A stretch of DNA of 64,000 nt, from positions 8,990 to 72,989 of the forward strand of contig DAOUHS010000149.1 of assembly GCA_034428415.1 (NCBI GenBank), read 5' to 3'. The position numbers and the translations under genes are program-made. This document shows, one piece after another, positions 3,369-51,726 of this stretch; position 1 is the stretch's first letter; each line of letters opens with the position of its first letter. Below the pieces are notes generated by a model. That model was not told the DNA's origin and made no database searches. It saw nothing but the letters and a program-made list of their open reading frames with translations. This DNA comes from Dehalococcoidia bacterium. GTDB lineage: Bacteria; Chloroflexota; Dehalococcoidia; Bin125.

Positions 3369-3634
3369 AAAAAAGCGTGGTCGTGCACCTGGCTTCGAAC
3401 GCCGCCATGAGCTTGCCTCCGCTAGCCGGCTCCGCCTAGGCACTCCCGCGTCACCCGACCTGTCAACCGCTTACCGCTGCTTCCTTTCGGACCTGACGGG
3501 GTTCACGGCGGGCCGCCGCGCGGGACCCAGACTTCATTACTGCTTGGCGTCGGTAGTTCTCATGTCGCCGCCCTCAACCCAGGAATTCAACCCCGCTAGA
3601 GCGGATTGCGGGTACAGGGCACCGCTAGCTCCCC
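3369..3634 (-). ncRNA. ffs: Signal recognition particle RNA (ffs), apparently long form (~265 nt) with an Alu-like 5' domain
   Basis: Reverse complement of 3451-3500 reads GUCAGGUCCGAAAGGAAGCAGCGGUAAGCGGUUGAC, the conserved SRP RNA domain IV (compare E. coli 4.5S GUCAGGUCCGGAAGGAAGCAGCCAAGGCAGAUGAC). A terminal helix pairs 5' GGUCGUGC with 3' GCACGACC, followed by a U7 tract (plus-strand A7 at 3368-3374). Ends are approximate, within about 10 nt. Confidence 0.7.
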
Positions 3635-3714
3635 ATCTAGCACGACCGACCATAATTCTATCACTAGCGGCGTTTGACTCCTGTCAGAGTAAACTCAGGT
3701 GAACAGGTTGGACA

Positions 3715-5148: not shown

Positions 5149-6999
5149 TTAGCTCTTCCCGAGCTGAAGGACGGCCAGGAAGGCTTCCTGAGGAATCTCG
5201 ACGTTGCCGACGCGCTTGAGCCGCTTCTTCCCCTCGGCCTGGCGCGCGAGCAGCTTACGCTTGCGGGTGATGTCTCCGCCGTAGCACTTAGCGGTCACGT
5301 TCTTGCGTAAGGCGCGCACGGTCTCGCGAGCCACAATCCGCCCGCCGACAGCGGCCTGGATTGGCACATCGAAGAGCTGGCGAGGGATGAGTCGGCGCAG
5401 CCGGTCGGCCAGTTCCCGGCCTTGCGTAGCGGCGGCGTCGGAGTGAACGATTGCGGAGAGCGCGTCCACCGGCTCACCATTGATTAACAGATCGAGCTTG
5501 ACCAGCTTGGCGGGTCGATAGCCGACCAGGGCGTAATCGAGGCTCGCATAGCCTCTCGTTCTCGACTTCAACTCGTCGTAGAAGTCGGTCAGTATCTCGG
5601 CTAGCGGTAACTCGTACTCAAGCAGTACGCGAATCTCGCCGGTGGCGAGAGTATGCTCCTCTGAGCCGTTCGGCTGACTCGTTCGCTGGAGGTACTCCAT
5701 GTGATCGAAGATGCCGCGCCGCGCAGTGACTGTCTCCATGACCGGACCCACGTAGTCGTGCGGCGCAATGATCGAGATTCGTACCCAGGGCTCGCGAATT
5801 TCGGCCACGTGATTCGGCGCTGGCAGATCGGACGGATTCTCAATCAGATTGACCTGCCCATCGGCACCCTCGACCTCATACTCGACCGAGGGCGCCGTGA
5901 AGACCAACTCCAGACCATATTCGCGTTCGAGACGTTCCTGCACGATTTCCATGTGCAACAGTCCCAGGAACCCCATTCGATAGCCAAACCCGAGCGCAGC
6001 CGAGGATTCAGGTTGGTATTGGATCGCGCTGTCCGAGAGTCGTAGCTTGTCGAGCGCGTCGGAGAGTTCCTCGTAGTCAGCAGAATTGGCGGGGTAGAGG
6101 CCGGCAAAGACCATCGCCTTGGGCTCCCGGTAACCGGGCAAGGGATCGGGCTGATTGCGGCCGCCGATGGTCATCGTGTCCCCAACGCGGACGTCGGCGA
6201 CATCCTTGAGCCCGGTGGCGACGTAGCCGACATCGCCTGAAGAGAGGGAGTCGAGGCGGTGCAGCTCCGGTGAGAAACTGCCTACTTCCATCGCTTCAAA
6301 GCGTCGATTGGTCGCTGCCAGCCGTAACGGCGTCTGCCCCTTGACACCGCCGTCGACGACACGTACGTGAGCGATCACGCCCTTGTAGGGGTCGTACTCC
6401 GAGTCGAAGATCAGCGCGCGAAGCGGATCGGTGAAGGCACCCTCCGGCGGAGGAATCCGATCGACGATGGCTTCCAGCAACTCTTCGATACCCGCTCCAG
6501 TCTTGGCCGAGACGTAGAGGATCTCCTCGCGACCAAAGCCGATTATGTCGACGAGCTCCGAAGCGATCGCCTCCGGACGGGCGACATCGAGATCGATTTT
6601 GTTGATTACCGGAATCAGGGTCAGGTCCTGTTCCATGGCCAGATAGACGTTTGCCAAGGTCTGGGCTTGGATGCCTTCGACGGCGTCAACGACTAGCAGC
6701 GCGCCCTCGGCCGCTGCGAGGCTGCGGGAGACCTCGTAGGAGAAATCGACATGGCCGGGGGTGTCGATGAGATGCAGACGATGCGAGCCGCTGGTTGGCG
6801 ACTGGTAGTCCATCCTCACAGCACGGGCTTTGATCGTGATCCCTTTCTCACGCTCCAAGTCCATGGAATCGAGGAGTTGATCGGACATGTCTCGCCGATC
6901 GACCGTGGCTGTGGCCTCCATCAGACGGTCGGACAGAGTTGATTTGCCGTGGTCAATGTGGGCGACAATACAGAAGTTGCGAATGCGCGATGCGTCCAT
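5149..6999 (-). CDS. lepA: Elongation factor 4
   Basis: [18 protein letters not shown]1 motif; 616 aa; LepA-specific C-terminal region. Confidence 0.95.
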
Positions 7000-9455: not shown

Positions 9456-9540
9456 TGGTGGGGAAGAGGAGACTCGAACTCCTACGCCTTGCGGCACATG
9501 ATCCTAAATCATGCTCGTCTGCCAATTCCGACACTTCCCC
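9456..9540 (-). tRNA. tRNA-Leu (anticodon UAG), long variable arm
   Basis: The reverse complement folds as a class II tRNA: acceptor GGGGAAG/CUUCCCC, anticodon loop containing UAG, T-arm AGGAG-UUCGAGU-CUCCU, and a CCA end. Confidence 0.85.
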
Positions 9541-9626
9541 TGCATGCGTGAGGAGGGCCGGTAAGCCGGCATCCTCTGGCGAGAGGTGCGACGAGGCTGA
9601 CAAACTGCTCATTCCATTGGTGTAAC

Positions 9627-9702
<76 letters not shown>

Positions 9703-10010
9703 CCACGCGTCAATCCCGCCCGGCACCGGGTGTGCCGGGGCGTCTCCCAATCTTACACGGCCTGCGCGACTCCAACGCCGGGTGGCTGGCTGGCTCAATG
9801 TTGCGTCCCCAAACCCACTCAATGTTCGCTTGTTCGTCGCCGCCCTTACGTCGGCTTGGCCTGCAAGCTAGCCAACGATGCGCAGAACGTCAACGAGTTG
9901 ACAGCAATTGTAGTCGCTGTCGACGGCGCATTGTGGTCGGGTCAGAGAGACGCAGTTCGTTGACCAAGCGAACGGGCGCGGAATACGATGAACCGACACC
10001 GGACAGGTGC

Positions 10011-10087
10011 GGGCGGTTAGCTCAGTTGGCTAGAGCGCTGCGTTGACATCGCAGAGGTCACTGGTTCAAGTCCAGTATCGCCCACCA
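10011..10087 (+). tRNA. tRNA-Val (anticodon GAC)
   Basis: GGGCGGUUAGCUCAGUUGG...CUGCG-UUGACAU-CGCAG...GGUUCAAGUCC...CCCACCA; lies immediately upstream of thrS on the same strand. Confidence 0.85.
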
Positions 10088-41718: not shown

Positions 41719-43065
41719 GTGAGAGCAGATCGACTCATGCCCAAGCGACCACCAACCGGCTTCAACGTCCGCCGCGCTCAGCAGAGCCGAATCGACTGGG
41801 ACAATCCGCCGGCCCAGCCCTACGAGCCGGCCCGGCCCACGCCCCAGTCCCGACCCGTCGGCGAAGTCGCCCGACACATCCGCACGCAACTCAAAGCCGA
41901 TCCGCAGCTCAACGACGTCTGGATCGAGGGCGAGGTCCGCAGCTTCAGCCGTTCCGGCGCAGGCCACTACTACTTCGATCTCGCCGACGCCCAGAAAACC
42001 GGCAAGACCGACGCCGCGCTCGCCTGCGCCTTCTTCCGCCGAGAGAATCGTGGCATGCCAGTGCAGCAGGGCGATCACGTGCTCGTCCACGGCAGCGCCG
42101 ACCTTTATCTCGCCCGAGGCGCGCTCCAGATCATCGTCGACGACCTCCGACCGATAGGCGAAGGCGTCCTGCAAGCCGAGTTCGAGCGCCTCTTCCGCAA
42201 TCTCAAAGAGGAAGGCCTGTTCAATCCCGAACGCAAGCGTCCCTTGCCTCCATACCCCCGACGGATCGGTGTCGTGACTTCACCGAGCGGCGCGGTCTGG
42301 CACGACATCCAGCAGGTCCTGACGCGGCGCTGGCCGTTGACTGCCCTTGTCCTCTCGCCTTGCCTCACCCAGGGCGCCGGCGCGGCCGAGTCCATTGCCA
42401 AAGGCATCCAACGGCTGAACCTCCTCACGGTCGACGAGCCCGACCTGATCATCGTTGCCCGCGGTGGCGGTTCGCCCGAGGACCTCTGGGCCTATAACGA
42501 AGAACCGGTCGCTCGTGCCATCTTCGCTAGCGACATCGCCGTCATCTCCGCCGTCGGACACGAAACCGACGTCACCATCGCCGACCATGTTGCCGACCGC
42601 CGCGCGCCGACCCCCTCCGCCGCCGCCGAAATCTCCGTCCCCGACCGCGCTGAGGAAGCCGCCCGCGTCGCCGGACTGCGCCAGGCCGGCGACCAGCAGA
42701 TCGACGACCGGGTCGTGGAACTCTCCCAGCGCGCCCTGCTCAACCGCGAACGTCTCGAGCGATCCGCGCCCCACCCTCCGACCATGCGCGTTGAACTCAA
42801 CCGCCAACGACGGGACCTCGATCAGGCGATCGAACGTCAACTCGCTCTACTCAAGGCTCACCAGGCCGCCGATGCCTCCCGGCTCAAGGCGCTCAACCCG
42901 CTCGGCACGCTGCAACGCGGCTACGCGATCGTCTCCGACCTCAGCGGCACAGTCCTCACCTCAGCGGCCGTATTGAGCGACAATCAGGACATCGCCATCC
43001 AGTTCGCCGACGGCAAGGTCGCCGCCAGAACCACACCGGATGAGGAGCCGTCAAGTGCCCGATGA
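41719..43065 (+). CDS. xseA: Exodeoxyribonuclease VII large subunit
   Basis: OB-fold N-terminus (VWIEGEVRSF...GHYYFDL) and the ExoVII catalytic region; GTG start preceded by GGAGAGGG. Confidence 0.9.
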   Translation: MRADRLMPKRPPTGFNVRRAQQSRIDWDNPPAQPYEPARPTPQSRPVGEVARHIRTQLKADPQLNDVWIEGEVRSFSRSGAGHYYFDLADAQKTGKTDAALACAFFRRENRGMPVQQGDHVLVHGSADLYLARGALQIIVDDLRPIGEGVLQAEFERLFRNLKEEGLFNPERKRPLPPYPRRIGVVTSPSGAVWHDIQQVLTRRWPLTALVLSPCLTQGAGAAESIAKGIQRLNLLTVDEPDLIIVARGGGSPEDLWAYNEEPVARAIFASDIAVISAVGHETDVTIADHVADRRAPTPSAAAEISVPDRAEEAARVAGLRQAGDQQIDDRVVELSQRALLNRERLERSAPHPPTMRVELNRQRRDLDQAIERQLALLKAHQAADASRLKALNPLGTLQRGYAIVSDLSGTVLTSAAVLSDNQDIAIQFADGKVAARTTPDEEPSSAR

Positions 43066-43252: not shown

Positions 43253-43562
43253 ACCCTATCCTCCCCCCCTTGTGAGGGGAAGATGTCACGAAGTTACAGT
43301 TAGGGTCCGACTTCCGCCAATCACCAATCAACAAAACGTCAGTGCGTATTTGATGGTAGGACCGGACACCGAAAGGAAACCCAGGGGAACCCGTAATGAC
43401 TAGCCCCCACATCCGGATTGTTCCAGAGATGCTCGGATTGACCCGGAAAAACACTCCCGTTTCCAAGACAAAACTGGACAGTCTTCGTAAGAGTTGTCAG
43501 CCCAGAACAGCACATTCTCCTCTTTCCACCGCATTTTCCCCGCACTACCCGGGCGAACGCCA

Positions 43563-44342
43563 ATGACACTCCGCATCGCCTGGTTCGCCACCGCCAGAGG
43601 CACAGGCTCGCGTTTGCTGCTCAACGCCGCCCTCGACGCGATCCGCGAAGGTCGGCTCGATGCCGAAATCGCCTGCGTTGTCTGCAACCGCCAGCGGGGA
43701 CAGTCGCCCAACACCGACGCCTTCCTCGACGATGTGGACAAGGCCGGACTCCCACTGATCGCCGATAGCTCAGGCGAATGGAGGAAGCGGGTTAGGGGGG
43801 AAATCTCGGATCCAGCCGCTGGACTCGCTCCTTGGCGGCAGGAGTTCGACCGACATCTGTACGAGCGGATGCAGGCACACGCGCCCGACCTCGGCATGCT
43901 TGCCGGATACATGCTGATCGTCACGGATGTCATCTGCGACAACCTGCCCTGCCTCAACCTTCACCCAGCCCTGCCCGACGGCCCGATCGGAACCTGGCAG
44001 CAGGTCATCCATGACCTCATCCGAGAGCAGGCCGAACGTTCGGGCATGGTCCTCCAGCGGGTCACAACCGAACTCGACCGAGGCCCAACAGTCACCTGGG
44101 CCCAGTATCCGATCCGCGGACCCAAGTTCGACCCCCTCTGGGCCGCCCATGAAGGCGACTCTGAATCGGAAACCCCTCTGTTCCATGCAATCCGCGAGGC
44201 GGGCGCCAGCCGCGAGCCGGCATTTGTTCTGCAGTCACTTCAGGCCATCGCCGGCGGGACAGTGCACATCCTTGGACCCGGTACCCCCAGCGCAGGAACC
44301 GAGATCACGGATCAGCTCGAGCGGGCAATGAAGCTCGAGTAG
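43563..44342 (+). CDS. Formyltransferase-family protein (PurN-like) with an internal insertion
   Basis: Aligns to PurN: WFATARGTGS vs ISGNGSNL, PDLGMLAGYM vs PDVVVLAGFM, LNLHPALP vs LNIHPSLLP (Asn and His retained), VTTELDRGP vs VTDELDGGP (Asp retained). Has a ~30-aa insertion and ~45 extra C-terminal residues. Start taken at the internal Met (MTLRIAWF). Confidence 0.7.
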   Translation: MTLRIAWFATARGTGSRLLLNAALDAIREGRLDAEIACVVCNRQRGQSPNTDAFLDDVDKAGLPLIADSSGEWRKRVRGEISDPAAGLAPWRQEFDRHLYERMQAHAPDLGMLAGYMLIVTDVICDNLPCLNLHPALPDGPIGTWQQVIHDLIREQAERSGMVLQRVTTELDRGPTVTWAQYPIRGPKFDPLWAAHEGDSESETPLFHAIREAGASREPAFVLQSLQAIAGGTVHILGPGTPSAGTEITDQLERAMKLE

Positions 44343-44420: not shown

Positions 44421-44705
44421 ATGTCTGACCCCGAGCCTCCCGTGCTCACACCCACAATCATTGATCCTCGCCCGAGCGCCCTCATGCCGGCGATCCGCGA
44501 GGACCTGGCCCCCTTCCTCCCGGCCCTGCGCAGCGCAGCCGGGCTGATCGCCGCCGCGGCAGTCGCCGAGTTCGCCGCTCGTTATGCTGCACCAGCGGTG
44601 ATCGATACCGCGCGGCAGATCATCGCCTCGGCGCCGCAGCACAAGCAGACGATTCTCGTTGAAGAGCAGACCACCGTTCGGCGCAAGGTCACGGTCGTTT
44701 CTTGA
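44421..44705 (+). CDS. Hypothetical small Ala/Pro-rich protein (94 aa); coding status uncertain
   Basis: ORF with high-GC third positions, preceded by an AT-rich spacer; no recognisable domain. Confidence 0.3.
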   Translation: MSDPEPPVLTPTIIDPRPSALMPAIREDLAPFLPALRSAAGLIAAAAVAEFAARYAAPAVIDTARQIIASAPQHKQTILVEEQTTVRRKVTVVS

Positions 44706-47052
44706 CCTGCTGGCCGCCATCTCTCTCGCCGCAATATCGATCTTCATTGTCAACGCCGTTCACCCTCTCTCGGCCGCTCACAGTCCCAGGCTCTTGATCA
44801 GCGAGGTCTACCCGGCCATCGTCCCGTCTGACTCCTCGATCGAATCCAATGAGTGGATCGAGATACACAACCCGGAGCCTCACGCCGTCGACCTCAGCGG
44901 ATGGACAATCGAGGACTCACAAGCCATTTCACTCCTGCCCGAATTCGTTCTTCCCGCCGATGCGACAGTCGTGATCGTCGGCCGTTCGGCGAACGTTGCC
45001 GTTCCGCCGGGGAAAGCCCTGATCATCCTGAGTAACCGACACATCGGCAATGGTTTACGGAACGCTGGCGACCGCGTTGCCCTGGTCGACCCGTACGGTG
45101 TCCGTTCCGACGCCATGAGCTGGGGCGACGTGAGGATCCCCCGGCACAGCGAGCCGCCCGAACCTGGCCAATCGATCACTCGCACGCCGGGTGGAGGCCA
45201 GTACCTTTCGGATCGACCGACGCCATGGTCGATCGATGGGACCGTTGACGCCTCGAGCAAGCGCTATACACATCCGCTTCCAGATACCAAGGTGCGCATC
45301 ATCTCGGCGCGTCTCGACCAGACCGAGGATCAACCGGAGTCCGTCACCATCCGCAACATCTCCCACGAGTCGCTGCTCACCGTCAACTGGCGTCTCACGG
45401 TGGGATCATCCTCCGTTCGAGTTCGCTCCGTACGGATCAATCCCGGGGAGACGTTCACGATCTTCGAGCCCGACGGCCGACTTGGGTCGGGACTCAATCG
45501 AAGGGGAGGGTACTTCGTTCTGCGAGACGCCAACGGGAACTGGCTGTCGACGGCGAGTTGGGGCCAGGACGTGACATTCCACCGCTTGACCCCACCGGCC
45601 GAGGGCGAGGAACTCAGTTTCAACCCTCTCGCTCGCGTGCATCCCAGGGTGCCCTGGCATCGTCGATTTGACGGCGCGAACCACTTGATCGTTGGTCATC
45701 AGGGACCGCGACATACCCTCCAGGCTGATGCCGTCTCGCACTCGAAAACCCGCGAGCAGAGTCTCGCTCTCACAGCTCAACAATCAGAGCGCGAGATCGT
45801 ATGGATTAGCGAAGTCCATCCTGCTCCCGGCCAAGGACGGAATGACGCTGCCTACGAGTGGTTCGAGATCACCAATTCAAGTGACATTGCCGTCAATCTC
45901 TCCGGTTGGACCGTTGCCGATAATCGGTCTTCAGACCTGTTTGAAGAACTCGTAATCCCGCCCCGTTCTTCAGTAGTGGTCGGGGTCTCGCAAGAGGCCG
46001 GCCCTGAAATTTTGCCGATCATCCGCGATGGCCGGATCGGCAACGGTCTTGCGAACGCTGGAGATCGGCTGACGCTGATCAACCCGGCGGGCGAAGTCAT
46101 GAGCGCAATCAGTTGGGGTAACGATCGCACCCATGCCAACGTCAGAGCGCCGAAATCCGAGGAGTCCATTCACCGATCCTCTCCGACTGCAGAGCCGACA
46201 ATCTCAGCACCCTCCGCCGGCCACATTGAGATATCGGCGGCGCCGGACTCGAGCACGGTTGGCGGCCGACAAGCATCTGGAAGCGAAGTTCAGTCCTCAG
46301 CCGAAGCCTCCCAGACTACACCGGCCCGATCCGCACCTAGCCCGCTTGCTCAAGTGAAACTACCTTCGTTGCGCATCACCGAGTTGTTGCCTGCCCCATT
46401 GCCCGGAGAGGCAGAGTGGGTGGAGATCTTCAATCCCACCGATGAGCCGGTTGACCTTTCCGGCTGGACGATCGGCGATCAGGCGCGCCGCACGCCGCTG
46501 ATCGGCGTCATTCCACCGCGCTCTTATCTGCTCATCGCAAATCTTGACCTTCGGAGTCCAACGCCGGCCTTGATTGTCGATCGGATCGGCAACGGCCTGA
46601 ACAACGACGCAGACACGATCAGTCTTCACGATCCGGATGGCGAAGCCCGATCTACGATCAGCTACGGCACCAGGGATGTCCCCACGCCCGGACCGGGGCT
46701 ATCTATCGCGTTGGATCCCGAGCGGTGGGTTGTGACCGCCGTTGCCTCACCAGGGTCAGAGGAGGTCACACCATTATTGGATGATGCGTTTCGCTCGCCA
46801 AGTGTGCAACCTGCTGCTCCGGAAGGGGAGCGACTCCCCATTGTCTCCGAACCGCCGAAGCAAGGTCTCAATGCCTGGATGATTGTCAGCTTCGCACTGA
46901 TCGGCGTCATCCTGACGCTGATCCTCAGGCGCTGGCAACCCGAACCGCTGCCGTCCCAGGACGCCGTCAGCGGCGCGCAATATTCCGGACCACTGCCAGC
47001 AACGTCGGAAGAACACGAGCGCGAGCCCAACGGAGAAAATCAGCGTGAATGA
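44659..47052 (+). CDS. Secreted, C-terminally membrane-anchored protein with four lamin-tail domains (LTDs; three canonical, one degenerate)
   Basis: TTG start. Signal-peptide-like N-terminus (KSRPPFGARSR followed by the hydrophobic core FLDLLAAISLAAISIFIV). Repeated LTD signatures: LLISEVYP...EWIEIHNPEPHAVDLSGWTIED, IVWISEVHPAPG...EWFEITNSSDIAVNLSGWTVAD, LRITELLPAPLPGEAEWVEIFNPTDEPVDLSGWTIGD, plus a degenerate copy (VRIISARLD...NWRLTVGS...FVLRDANGNWLSTASWG). A Ser/Ala/Pro-rich linker, then a C-terminal TM helix (AWMIVSFALIGVILTLILRRW) and a short acidic tail. Confidence 0.75.
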   Translation: MKSRPPFGARSRSFLDLLAAISLAAISIFIVNAVHPLSAAHSPRLLISEVYPAIVPSDSSIESNEWIEIHNPEPHAVDLSGWTIEDSQAISLLPEFVLPADATVVIVGRSANVAVPPGKALIILSNRHIGNGLRNAGDRVALVDPYGVRSDAMSWGDVRIPRHSEPPEPGQSITRTPGGGQYLSDRPTPWSIDGTVDASSKRYTHPLPDTKVRIISARLDQTEDQPESVTIRNISHESLLTVNWRLTVGSSSVRVRSVRINPGETFTIFEPDGRLGSGLNRRGGYFVLRDANGNWLSTASWGQDVTFHRLTPPAEGEELSFNPLARVHPRVPWHRRFDGANHLIVGHQGPRHTLQADAVSHSKTREQSLALTAQQSEREIVWISEVHPAPGQGRNDAAYEWFEITNSSDIAVNLSGWTVADNRSSDLFEELVIPPRSSVVVGVSQEAGPEILPIIRDGRIGNGLANAGDRLTLINPAGEVMSAISWGNDRTHANVRAPKSEESIHRSSPTAEPTISAPSAGHIEISAAPDSSTVGGRQASGSEVQSSAEASQTTPARSAPSPLAQVKLPSLRITELLPAPLPGEAEWVEIFNPTDEPVDLSGWTIGDQARRTPLIGVIPPRSYLLIANLDLRSPTPALIVDRIGNGLNNDADTISLHDPDGEARSTISYGTRDVPTPGPGLSIALDPERWVVTAVASPGSEEVTPLLDDAFRSPSVQPAAPEGERLPIVSEPPKQGLNAWMIVSFALIGVILTLILRRWQPEPLPSQDAVSGAQYSGPLPATSEEHEREPNGENQRE

Positions 47053-50304: not shown

Positions 50305-51726
50305 ATGACACCTCCGCGCCGTTCCACTGTTCCGGTCGGGGCGATCAGCGCCATTGAAGCCGACTCGCTGGCCGAGGCAGCGGGACTGCGGCCTGGTGAC
50401 CAGGTGCTCGCCGTCAACGGGCAACCTGTCCGCGATCCCGTGGATTACCGCTTTCAGACAACCGACAACCTGGTCGAACTCGAAGTGGTGCATGTCGGCG
50501 AACTCGCATTGGTCGAGTTCGAAAAGCCGATCGATGAACCGCTCGGAATCGAATTCGACGATGACGCATTCGACGGAACCCGGATCTGCAACAACAAGTG
50601 CTTCTTCTGCTTCCTCAAAGGGCTGCCCAAGGGCCTGCGCCGGCCGCTCTACATCAAGGACGACGACTATCGCTTGTCCTTCCTCCACGGCAACTTCGTC
50701 ACCCTGACAAATCTCTCCGACGATGACTGGGTTCGTCTCGAGGAACAGCGGCTTAGTCCACTGCACGTCAGTGTTCATGCGACCGACCTCGCACTGCGCC
50801 GAACCCTGCTGGGCAACCGAACCGCGCCCGACATCCTCGAGCAGCTTCGCCGCCTGGCCGATATGCGGATCGAAGTTCACACGCAAGTGGTGCTCTGCCC
50901 GGGCGTCAATGACGGCGACGCGCTCGACCTGACCGTGGGCGATCTCCTGCGTCAGCAGAACGTTGTGTCGATAGGTGTCGTACCTGTCGGCTCGTCACTC
51001 GAAGGCGAGCAAAGGATCAGCGACAACGGGATGCGCGCGCATAGCTCGCAGGAGGCCAGGCGCGTGGTCAAGCAACTGCGCCGCTGGCAACGACTCGCAA
51101 GAACAGAGCGAAGCGCTTCGGTCGTGTTTCCCAGCGACGAGTTCTATCTGACTGCCAACGCGCAGATCCCGGCCGCCCGGCGCTATGACGGATTCCCGCA
51201 GTGGGAAAACGGGATCGGCATGACGCGCACGTTGATCGATGATTGGCGCAAGACTCGAAACAAATTGCGCCAAGGACGACTCGAGGTTCCCACAACTTCA
51301 GCGCTCATCGCCTGTGGAACCCTGATCGCGCCGACGCTCCAGACGCTCTGCGATGAAGCAGCCGCGTTAACCGGAATAGATTTCACGATCCTGCCGATCG
51401 AGAACTCGCTGTTTGGAGCGCGGGTCAACGTCAGCGGCCTGATTCCTGGCATGGACTTCCTGTCTGCGCTATCGCTACGCGAACTTCCACCTCACGTATT
51501 CCTGCCTCGCGCGTCTCTCGACTACTTCGGCACAAAGTTCCTCGACGACCTGACGGCAGAGGAACTGGAAGCTCGCTTGAATCGGCCCGTGTCATTCGTC
51601 TACACCCTCTCCGAGCTCTTAGAGTTGATCGTTGAGGGCACCGACCAGCAGGATTCGGGCAGCAGACAGCCCGGACCCAACGAGCGATCCAACGGTCGCA
51701 GTTGGACGACGCCTGTGGCGGGGTAG
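50305..51726 (+). CDS. PDZ domain / radical SAM-like / DUF512 protein
   Basis: N-terminal PDZ-like segment (GLRPGDQVLAVNGQPV) and a CNNKCFFC (CxxxCxxC) motif, followed by a long C-terminal domain of the DUF512 type. Confidence 0.7.
   Translation: MTPPRRSTVPVGAISAIEADSLAEAAGLRPGDQVLAVNGQPVRDPVDYRFQTTDNLVELEVVHVGELALVEFEKPIDEPLGIEFDDDAFDGTRICNNKCFFCFLKGLPKGLRRPLYIKDDDYRLSFLHGNFVTLTNLSDDDWVRLEEQRLSPLHVSVHATDLALRRTLLGNRTAPDILEQLRRLADMRIEVHTQVVLCPGVNDGDALDLTVGDLLRQQNVVSIGVVPVGSSLEGEQRISDNGMRAHSSQEARRVVKQLRRWQRLARTERSASVVFPSDEFYLTANAQIPAARRYDGFPQWENGIGMTRTLIDDWRKTRNKLRQGRLEVPTTSALIACGTLIAPTLQTLCDEAAALTGIDFTILPIENSLFGARVNVSGLIPGMDFLSALSLRELPPHVFLPRASLDYFGTKFLDDLTAEELEARLNRPVSFVYTLSELLELIVEGTDQQDSGSRQPGPNERSNGRSWTTPVAG

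Follow-up and report, generated by a model that had tools for sequence, protein, structure and literature searches.

A predicted surface-anchored protein with four lamin-tail domains at a conserved locus of Dehalococcoidia

In a window of 64 kb (the whole stretch of DNA that was analysed, 64,000 nucleotides) we find an intact gene for a protein that carries four lamin-tail domains (LTDs) and whose gene product we read, with a probability of roughly one half, as a constitutively expressed, non-enzymatic cell-envelope protein of a sponge-associated Dehalococcoidia bacterium that serves as a surface binding or spacer array. The protein type as such is common and already annotated, and its surface architecture is ordinary. 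New here are the fixed synteny of the gene, its pairing with a small upstream gene (orf94), a transmembrane (TM) helix as the most conserved segment of the protein, two independent expansions from two to four LTDs and the acidic character of the LTDs in this family.

Domain content and predicted topology

A preliminary description of this DNA had proposed a 797-aa open reading frame with a TTG start that overlaps an upstream frame of 94 aa, and our data agree: the frame is intact (44659..47052, + strand) with neither a frameshift nor an internal stop, and it starts inside orf94. The TTG is the sole ATG/GTG/TTG before codon 46. The spacing is -47 nt to orf94 and -4 nt to the rluB-like gene that follows. 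The features of the locus are given below, with AlphaFold2 abbreviated as AF2 and Pfam scores taken from single-piece scans.

44421..44705, + strand: orf94, 94 aa, ATG start; last 47 nt shared with the LTD gene
44659..47052, + strand: LTD gene, 797 aa, TTG start, TGA stop overlapping the rluB-like start (ATGA)
44659..44778, + strand: putative signal peptide, aa 1-40, from hydropathy, an AF2 helix (13-31) and alignment conservation
44782..45228, + strand: LTD1, type A, acidic (net -7), aa 42-190; Pfam 56.3 bits (aa ~42-156); AF2 strands 46-184
45271..45663, + strand: LTD2, divergent, near-neutral or basic, aa 205-335; Pfam 17.7 bits (aa ~212-302), hhalign and AF2
45664..45789, + strand: linker between LTD2 and LTD3, predicted disordered, aa 336-377; pLDDT <50 for aa 337-378; 22% mean identity
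45790..46218, + strand: LTD3, type A, motif DGRIGNGLANAGD, aa 378-520; Pfam 58.9 bits (aa ~375-487)
46171..46359, + strand: Ser/Ala/Pro/Thr-rich low-complexity linker between LTD3 and LTD4, aa 505-567; S+A+P+T fraction 0.59
46360..46758, + strand: LTD4, type B, PSPGS at its end, aa 568-700; Pfam 60.5 bits (aa ~570-670)
46759..46866, + strand: pre-TM stalk, Pro-rich and acidic, with a conserved VTPLL motif, aa 701-736
46867..46929, + strand: predicted TM helix NAWMIVSFALIGVILTLIL, followed by RRW, aa 737-757; hydropathy and AF2 helix 738-757
46930..47049, + strand: predicted cytoplasmic tail, aa 758-797 (40 aa), net charge -5, conserved YSGP motif

Four LTDs, one of them degenerate, had been claimed, and sequence profiles and structural models together confirm this number. 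The Pfam family PF00932 matches the whole protein with 180.8 bits (E 9.8e-54) over three stretches, and LTD1, LTD3 and LTD4 each exceed its gathering score of 34.3 bits on their own. LTD2 stays under this cut-off (E 0.0047, profile positions 8-108 of 109), is devoid of the EW.E..N motif and carries a conserved HPRxPW at its end. We count it as an LTD nonetheless, because hhalign comparison of the family domain alignments joins it to each of the other three domains with 97-98.7% probability (E 8e-11 to 4e-16) and because AF2 models it as the most confident beta-sandwich of the protein (pLDDT 82-92). LTD1 is nearest to LTD3 (hhalign E 4e-33) and LTD4 matches best domain 2 of relatives with two LTDs. 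Here and family-wide LTD1, LTD3 and LTD4 are strongly acidic (pI 4.2-4.9, net charge -6 to -13), with only LTD2 near neutral.

Consistent with this, structure prediction gives four beta-sandwiches set apart by disordered linkers, plus a TM helix, in a whole-protein model (mean pLDDT 67, pTM 0.42) that does not fix the relative arrangement of the domains. When the predicted LTDs are compared with the PDB by Foldseek, Ig-fold entries of lamins A/C, B1 and B2 come out on top (probability 1.0, TMt 0.5-0.68), the best match being the human lamin A/C tail (PDB 1IFR, 3GEF; probability 1.0, target-normalised TM-score 0.66-0.68). This likeness goes along with a sequence identity of 16-18% only, and the lamin domain is nuclear and present in single copy on a coiled-coil rod, whereas the four copies here are predicted to be extracytoplasmic and membrane-anchored. 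A PDB sequence search with the family profile returned no solved bacterial homologue at E ≤ 0.01.

As for topology, the N-terminus combines a basic n-region (K2, R4, R10, R12) with a hydrophobic helix at aa 13-31 and a conserved small-x-small site (A/S-x-A/S/T; ..SAA|H) just before H41, so that the proposed signal peptide holds up as a prediction with a putative cleavage site. Likewise, the claimed C-terminal TM anchor finds support from hydropathy and AF2 (aa 737-757), and the 40 residues past it are acidic as described. Together these features fit a type I membrane anchor, as judged from sequence and model. The notion of a Ser/Ala/Pro-rich stalk needs correction: such a stretch exists, but it lies between LTD3 and LTD4 (pLDDT <50 for aa 522-567; 15% mean identity) and is not membrane-proximal. 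Members of this clade have 40 conserved residues after the TM helix, and distant relatives end in (I/V)PAW, the TM helix and an Arg cluster, an arrangement that resembles a sorting signal yet matches no known one. No NCBIfam model for a C-terminal sorting signal (LPXTG, PEP-CTERM, GlyGly-CTERM, PGF-CTERM and similar) matched the protein, nor did Pfam or NCBIfam scans reveal an SLH or other S-layer module.

No other segment of the protein is as conserved as the TM helix, at 85% mean identity (vs ~60% for the LTDs). As the cause we considered, and rejected, an rluB promoter or RNA element, given that third codon positions vary and second positions do not (identities of 0.82/0.95/0.58 for positions one to three); the poorly conserved tail downstream also contradicts a cause at the nucleotide level. 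Going by these codon-position identities, selection on the TM segment acts at the level of the protein.

Genomic slot and the small neighbour gene

We collected ~62 full-length homologues of the LTD protein (45-99% identity), and the homologue and neighbourhood comparison suggested earlier reveals a conserved gene order. In 37 loci the genes run pepP-efp-xseA-xseB-fmt-like-orf94-LTD-rluB-cmk-plsC-ispH-DUF512-glmS, and the same slot holds an LTD protein even where the neighbours share only ~50% identity. By this gene order, the LTD gene counts as a positional orthologue across Dehalococcoidia, with a fixed place among housekeeping genes; this location does not by itself prove a housekeeping role. 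The gene is single-copy, and other LTD genes were not found within the window.

All variants in the slot keep the signal-like N-terminus, LTDs and the C-terminal TM helix, and the LTD number varies naturally between 1 and 4. It rose from two to four independently in two lineages and by different duplications, which left the domain order A-A'-A-B here and A-B-B-B in the other lineage. The LTD cores are under purifying selection, and third codon positions vary as in coding sequence.

The pairing with the small neighbour is conserved as well. Nearly every syntenic locus (L001-L053, L057) has, immediately ahead of the LTD gene, an orf94-like frame that bears the motif LPA[LIV]R.DL. Across 37 syntenic loci orf94 shows 61-93% identity, and its relatives form 47 protein clusters of ~94 aa that have neither a Pfam match nor a name. 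The AF2 model of orf94 (mean pLDDT 79.7) shows a long alpha-helix (aa 21-69) and a C-terminal beta-hairpin, and in distant homologues the N-terminus bears a CxxC..CxxC zinc ribbon, whose weak Pfam matches fall under the cut-offs. We considered whether orf94 is a TM protein. It has no signal peptide, its hydrophobic stretch is short with a conserved acidic residue, and in distant homologues the core spans only ~14 residues, bounded by Arg and with a conserved Asp/Glu inside; from these sequence features the hydrophobic core is probably not a TM helix.

Comparison with known LTD proteins

The preliminary description held multi-LTD arrays devoid of a catalytic domain to be uncommon, a view that our exhaustive profile search overturns by finding many such proteins with 4-17 LTDs. 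Among 1.84 billion representatives, 27,590 matched at E ≤ 1e-3, of which 930 reached E ≤ 1e-30, and of the 144 top proteins beyond the first rows, 116 contain at least four LTD matches (maximum 17). Pfam scans of nine sampled multi-LTD proteins identified six as LTD-only with 4-8 LTDs; extra matches in the other three were only to FlgD_ig, CARDB or similar, non-enzymatic domains. Tandem-LTD proteins are already listed in the literature, and homologues from Chloroflexi/Chloroflexota MAGs go by the name 'lamin tail domain-containing protein' in NCBI records. Among the 15 top-ranked literature matches, none brought lamin tails together with Chloroflexi or sponge symbionts.

Our protein shares with bacterial tandem-LTD-only proteins (PF00932) the domain itself, the absence of a catalytic domain and a secreted or surface context (predicted here). 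What sets it apart is a conserved TM helix near the C-terminus with a predicted cytoplasmic tail (among the multi-LTD proteins sampled, several end in a FlgD_ig-type domain), the strong divergence of one of its four LTDs and its place as a fixed syntenic gene paired with orf94. With ExeM of Shewanella oneidensis and other NucH-type nucleases (PMC6085458) and with Hvo_1477 of Haloferax volcanii it has in common a signal sequence at the N-terminus ahead of an LTD, a hydrophobic region at the C-terminus and a cell-surface location (signal sequence and location being predictions here). Those proteins, however, combine a single LTD with an OB-fold and an EEP or thermonuclease domain, whereas four LTDs and no catalytic domain are found here. 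That a catalytic domain is absent, as had been stated, is borne out by Pfam and NCBIfam scans at E ≤ 0.1, in which LTD was the only family (NCBIfam returned nothing) and neither an EEP, thermonuclease nor metallo-beta-lactamase domain appeared beside the LTDs.

Possible roles of the array

The role of bacterial LTDs is not established (PMC6085458). In the reading that we favour, a non-enzymatic envelope protein, Sec export would be followed by signal peptide cleavage near A40/H41, and the C-terminal helix would act as a stop-transfer anchor that leaves the protein in type I topology (N-out, C-in), with its four LTDs strung like beads on the outer side of the membrane. At the cell surface such an array may serve as a spacer or as a multivalent binder, either self-associating or attaching to a polymer from the envelope of the cell itself or from its surroundings, and its reach as well as its valency would then depend on the number of LTDs. 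In the membrane, the near-invariant TM helix could pack with itself or with a partner. Translation may be coupled upstream to orf94, through the 47-nt overlap and the TTG embedded in orf94 codons, and downstream to the rluB-like gene via ATGA. What speaks against this reading is that four related loci (named below) have no canonical start ahead of the signal-peptide core, and that orf94, which would have to meet an extracellular array, has no signal peptide and only a short hydrophobic stretch.

A more specific scenario, possible in our view though unlikely, sees the lamin-type array as a host-interface adhesin for sponge cells or their extracellular matrix, which would aid persistence in the sponge. 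An identical protein is called on a contig of SRR3473501, a metagenome of the sponge Petrosia ficiformis, and many of the homologous loci presumably stem from sponge-derived bins. Also in line with an adhesin, the predicted ectodomain evolves faster than every neighbour gene (44-62% vs 65-96% identity) and the number of LTDs changed in two lineages independently of each other. Against this, the gene is fixed in a housekeeping array across deeply diverged Dehalococcoidia rather than lying in an island or among accessory genes, its LTD cores are under purifying selection and LTD arrays are common in free-living bacteria as well.

To our minds it is improbable that the LTDs form a scaffold which captures extracellular DNA, or some other phosphodiester polymer, at the cell surface so that separate enzymes can take it up or degrade it. 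Of the ligands that the preliminary description had proposed for a polyvalent binding scaffold (DNA, glycan or membrane), DNA is disfavoured: simple binding by charge sits badly with the strong acidity of LTD1, LTD3 and LTD4, and neither the protein nor its adjacent genes offer a nuclease, ComEC, OB-fold or phosphoesterase domain; the neighbouring xseA/xseB encode exonuclease VII, which acts in the cytoplasm. What speaks for capture is the company that LTDs keep, since characterised ones accompany extracellular nucleases and competence-type proteins (ExeM, Hvo_1477, ComA-like) and weaker homologues combine LTD with PLD-like or CotH domains. Removal of the LTD lowers ExeM activity in vitro, but ExeM does not need the domain to degrade extracellular DNA in vivo (PMC6085458).

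Even less credence, in our opinion, is due to a receptor pair in which the LTD array senses a ligand and signals via the TM helix and the YSGP tail to a small cytoplasmic orf94. While the near-invariant TM helix, the conserved YSGP, the strict orf94 pairing across deep lineages and the zinc ribbon of some orf94 homologues would suit such a pair, there is no recognisable signalling or DNA-binding output domain in either protein, the zinc-ribbon matches are sub-threshold and the tail is reduced to a few arginines in distant lineages where the pairing with orf94 persists.

Finally, we considered an artefact (a chance open frame, a pseudogene or a frameshift fusion with orf94), since the two genes overlap by 47 nt, the TTG start has no obvious Shine-Dalgarno sequence and four related loci (L014, L017, L018, L023) lack a canonical start ahead of the signal-peptide core; in these a shared CTG six codons downstream is the candidate start. 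An artefact is refuted by the Pfam E-value, dozens of full-length orthologues, coding-type third-position variation and, as to fusion, by L026, L034, L037 and L040, which keep two separate, non-overlapping genes, the LTD gene having its own ATG/GTG past the orf94 stop.

For the biology of LTDs, the family lets one study the bacterial domain cleanly, with no enzyme attached, because the gene is core, syntenic and single-copy, comes with a conserved small partner and anchor and naturally encodes between one and four LTDs. It is tempting, albeit rather doubtful, to extend the reading of a non-enzymatic envelope protein to a Dehalococcoidia-specific two-gene envelope module, in which orf94 would dock on the TM or juxtamembrane segment and the array, its length tuned by repeated domain duplication, would provide these sponge symbionts with their main outer coat or with the layer that contacts the host. 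If the array were indeed such a surface coat or host-contact layer of the abundant sponge-associated Dehalococcoidia, it would provide a useful handle on this uncultivated group.

Domain content and conservation of the LTD protein

The gene for the protein with lamin tail domains (LTD, PF00932) and its upstream neighbours lie in the window as follows.

43494-44342 (+): formyltransferase-like gene, 282 aa
44421-44705 (+): orf94, a 94-aa gene
44659-47052 (+): LTD gene, 797 codons with a TTG start

The LTD reading frame is uninterrupted, in agreement with the preliminary description, and an artefact as its explanation is refuted. PF00932 is the protein's only Pfam match (180.8 bits, E 9.8e-54, in three stretches), and NCBIfam yielded neither a match nor a recognised C-terminal sorting signal. 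When the protein was scanned as four pieces, LTD1 (aa ~42-156), LTD3 (aa ~375-487) and LTD4 (aa ~570-670) scored 56.3, 58.9 and 60.5 bits, above the cut-off of 34.3 bits, while LTD2 (aa ~212-302) stayed below it (17.7 bits, E 0.0047) yet aligned to nearly the whole model. Profile-profile comparison, for which the family alignment was split into four domain alignments (D1-D4), relates D2 to D1, D3 and D4 with 97.1-98.7% probability (E 8e-11 to 4e-16), the closest pair being D1 and D3 (E 4e-33). AlphaFold2, run on an alignment of 37 sequences (mean pLDDT 67, pTM 0.42), predicts four beta-sandwiches (aa 46-184, 212-320, 381-516 and 572-693), among which D2 is the most confident (pLDDT 82-92), as well as disordered linkers (aa 337-378 and 522-567) and helices at aa 13-31 and 738-757. 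In a Foldseek search of the PDB the human lamin A/C Ig-fold (3GEF, 1IFR) came out on top, with probability 1.0 and TM-scores of 0.66-0.68 on the target; a PDB search by sequence with the family profile detected no solved structure. The protein, which has no cysteine, belongs to the LTD family in both sequence and fold, and the earlier claim of four LTDs, one of them degenerate, holds: three exceed the Pfam cut-off and D2 is recognised by profile-profile comparison and its predicted beta-sandwich.

Also borne out are the C-terminal transmembrane (TM) helix (aa 737-757) and, after the residues RRW, an acidic tail (40 aa, net charge -5). The proposed Ser/Ala/Pro-rich stalk does exist (aa 505-567) but sits between LTD3 and LTD4 rather than beside the membrane; the segment just before the TM helix is acidic and rich in Pro. 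Measured against the window protein, mean identity rises from 15-22% in the linkers through 33% in the tail, 49% in the pre-TM segment and ~60% in the LTDs to 85% in the TM helix. Across 37 loci, identity at codon positions 1/2/3 of the TM helix is 0.82/0.95/0.58 and therefore reflects constraint on the protein, not the DNA. Such strong conservation suggests that the helix may pack against itself or a partner.

orf94 and the embedded start codon

Our data identify orf94 as a genuine gene. It is 61-93% identical over 37 close loci, and the protein database has it in 47 unnamed ~94-aa clusters, none with a Pfam domain. In almost every syntenic locus, deep lineages included, an ORF bearing its signature (LPA[LIV]R.DL ... 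ETV.VER) immediately precedes the LTD gene; non-syntenic LTD loci have no such ORF. According to AlphaFold2, a single long helix spans aa 21-69 (pLDDT 90-96) and the C-terminus forms a beta-hairpin; some distant homologues (L031, L040) carry an N-terminal CxxC..CxxC zinc ribbon, with Pfam matches just under the cut-off.

The two genes overlap, as previously noted; the overlap is 47 nt long. The LTD start codon falls in the stretch of orf94 with the highest conservation (..ILVEEQTTVRR..), where the TTG arises from synonymous codon choice: the window reads GTT-G, locus L001 CTT-G one codon earlier. No further ATG, GTG or TTG follows until codon 46, which is already beyond the N-terminal hydrophobic segment. 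In four other loci (L014, L017, L018 and L023, around 5941-6076) there is no ATG, GTG or TTG upstream of the signal-peptide core; they have in common a CTG that lies six codons past the point of the TTG in the window. Elsewhere (L026, L034, L037, L040) orf94 and an LTD gene with its own ATG or GTG do not overlap at all. Hence we regard the two as a gene pair and reject a frameshift fusion.

Frequency and origin of four-LTD arrays

That a four-LTD array without a catalytic domain is uncommon, as first thought, did not survive a wider search. Run exhaustively with the family profile against 1.84 billion cluster representatives, HMMER found 27,590 proteins at E<=1e-3, of which 930 reach E<=1e-30. 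From the best 150 we took the 144 that were not among the homologues already retrieved from 5.8 billion proteins: 116 of them carry four or more LTD matches, with a maximum of 17, although summed scores skew this sample towards repeat-rich proteins. Pfam scans of nine of the 144 revealed no catalytic domain: six are LTD-only (4-8 LTDs), and the other three add just FlgD_ig, CARDB or similar non-enzymatic matches. Tandem-LTD proteins are also mentioned in the ExeM paper, with reference to Mans et al.; there the role of LTDs counts as not elucidated, with membrane targeting as one suggestion (PMC6085458). Since the window protein lacks the catalytic domain of ExeM/NucH-type nucleases, it is not one of them.

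In the orthologous, syntenic slot every protein has a signal-like N-terminus and LTDs, the last of which precedes a 'PSPG..VTPLL' motif, an acidic stretch and a C-terminal TM segment; this segment starts (N/P)AW, and arginines come after it. LTD number varies from 1 to 4.

LTD number among slot proteins
One LTD, after a different N-terminal region: L056, L060, L062
Two LTDs: e.g. L040, L046, L049, L050
Three LTDs: L053
Four LTDs: the window's clade; separately L038, L039, L042, L043, L047, L057

By domain-by-domain best matches the two-LTD proteins consist of subtypes A and B, the window's clade is A-A'-A-B (A' being the divergent D2) and the L038/L042 clade A-B-B-B. Four-LTD arrays therefore arose twice, by different duplications, which suggests that selection may act on length or valency. 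Distant relatives (L038-L057) end, after PSPG..VTPLL, in (I/V)PAW, a hydrophobic helix and an Arg cluster at the extreme C-terminus; this resembles a sorting signal, and no known model matched.

Neighbourhood, habitat and possible role

From the 5.8 billion proteins searched came ~62 full-length homologues of 740-850 aa at 45-99% identity; LTD is the sole Pfam domain in each, and those with a name read 'lamin tail domain-containing protein [Chloroflexi/Chloroflexota bacterium]'. When one genome was scanned for each GTDB species, 65 loci emerged, nearly every one labelled as a Dehalococcoidia or Chloroflexota MAG. With the identities of the neighbouring genes checked, the window and 37 loci share the order pepP-efp-xseA-xseB-formyltransferase-like-orf94-LTD-rluB-like-cmk-plsC-ispH-DUF512-glmS. 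In more distant Dehalococcoidia, whose neighbours are only ~50% identical, an LTD protein still lies between the formyltransferase-like gene and rluB. Window junctions are tight: -47 nt (orf94/LTD), -4 nt (LTD/rluB, ATGA), +3 nt (cmk/plsC) and -4 nt (plsC/ispH).

Other features of the window are these.

3381-3645 (-): bacterial large SRP RNA (RF01854, 175 bits)
9456-10087: tRNA genes Leu-TAG (-), Lys-CTT (-) and Val-GAC (+)
43040-43065: 26-nt overlap of the listed xseA and xseB ORFs
51702-51726: 25-nt overlap of the listed DUF512 and glmS ORFs; listed glmS begins at TTG, and its true start may be further downstream

The formyltransferase-like protein, whose synteny with the LTD locus holds in every lineage, scores 50.7 bits for Formyl_trans_N and just 61 bits for PurN (cut-off 150).

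We favour, at a probability of about 0.5, an exported, membrane-anchored, non-enzymatic multivalent LTD array, a picture whose topology is much likelier than its binding part. The protein, probably expressed together with housekeeping genes, would be exported by Sec, cut near residue 40 and held by its C-terminal helix as a type I anchor, so that four acidic Ig-like modules may project from the membrane on flexible linkers for multivalent binding or spacing at the cell surface. An adhesin for a sponge host would fit the habitat, an identical protein being encoded on a contig from SRR3473501, a metagenome of the Mediterranean sponge Petrosia ficiformis (bioRxiv 10.1101/2024.01.09.574914), and the fast evolution of the ectodomain, LTD being the fastest-evolving gene of the array (44-62% identity versus 65-96% for neighbours); but the gene is core and syntenic, and we consider this unlikely. 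It is decidedly doubtful that orf94 and LTD form a Dehalococcoidia-specific envelope or host-contact module. A scaffold capturing DNA or a phosphate polymer, to be imagined since LTDs accompany nucleases elsewhere, is improbable given that LTD1, LTD3 and LTD4 are acidic here and family-wide (pI 4.2-4.9 and median net charges between -6 and -13, with LTD2 close to neutral) and that no nuclease or uptake gene lies nearby. A receptor pair of LTD protein and orf94 seems most improbable. Four points deserve to be kept: orf94 and LTD form a conserved pair, the TM helix is invariant, the TTG start is embedded in orf94, and expansion to four LTDs took place twice independently.
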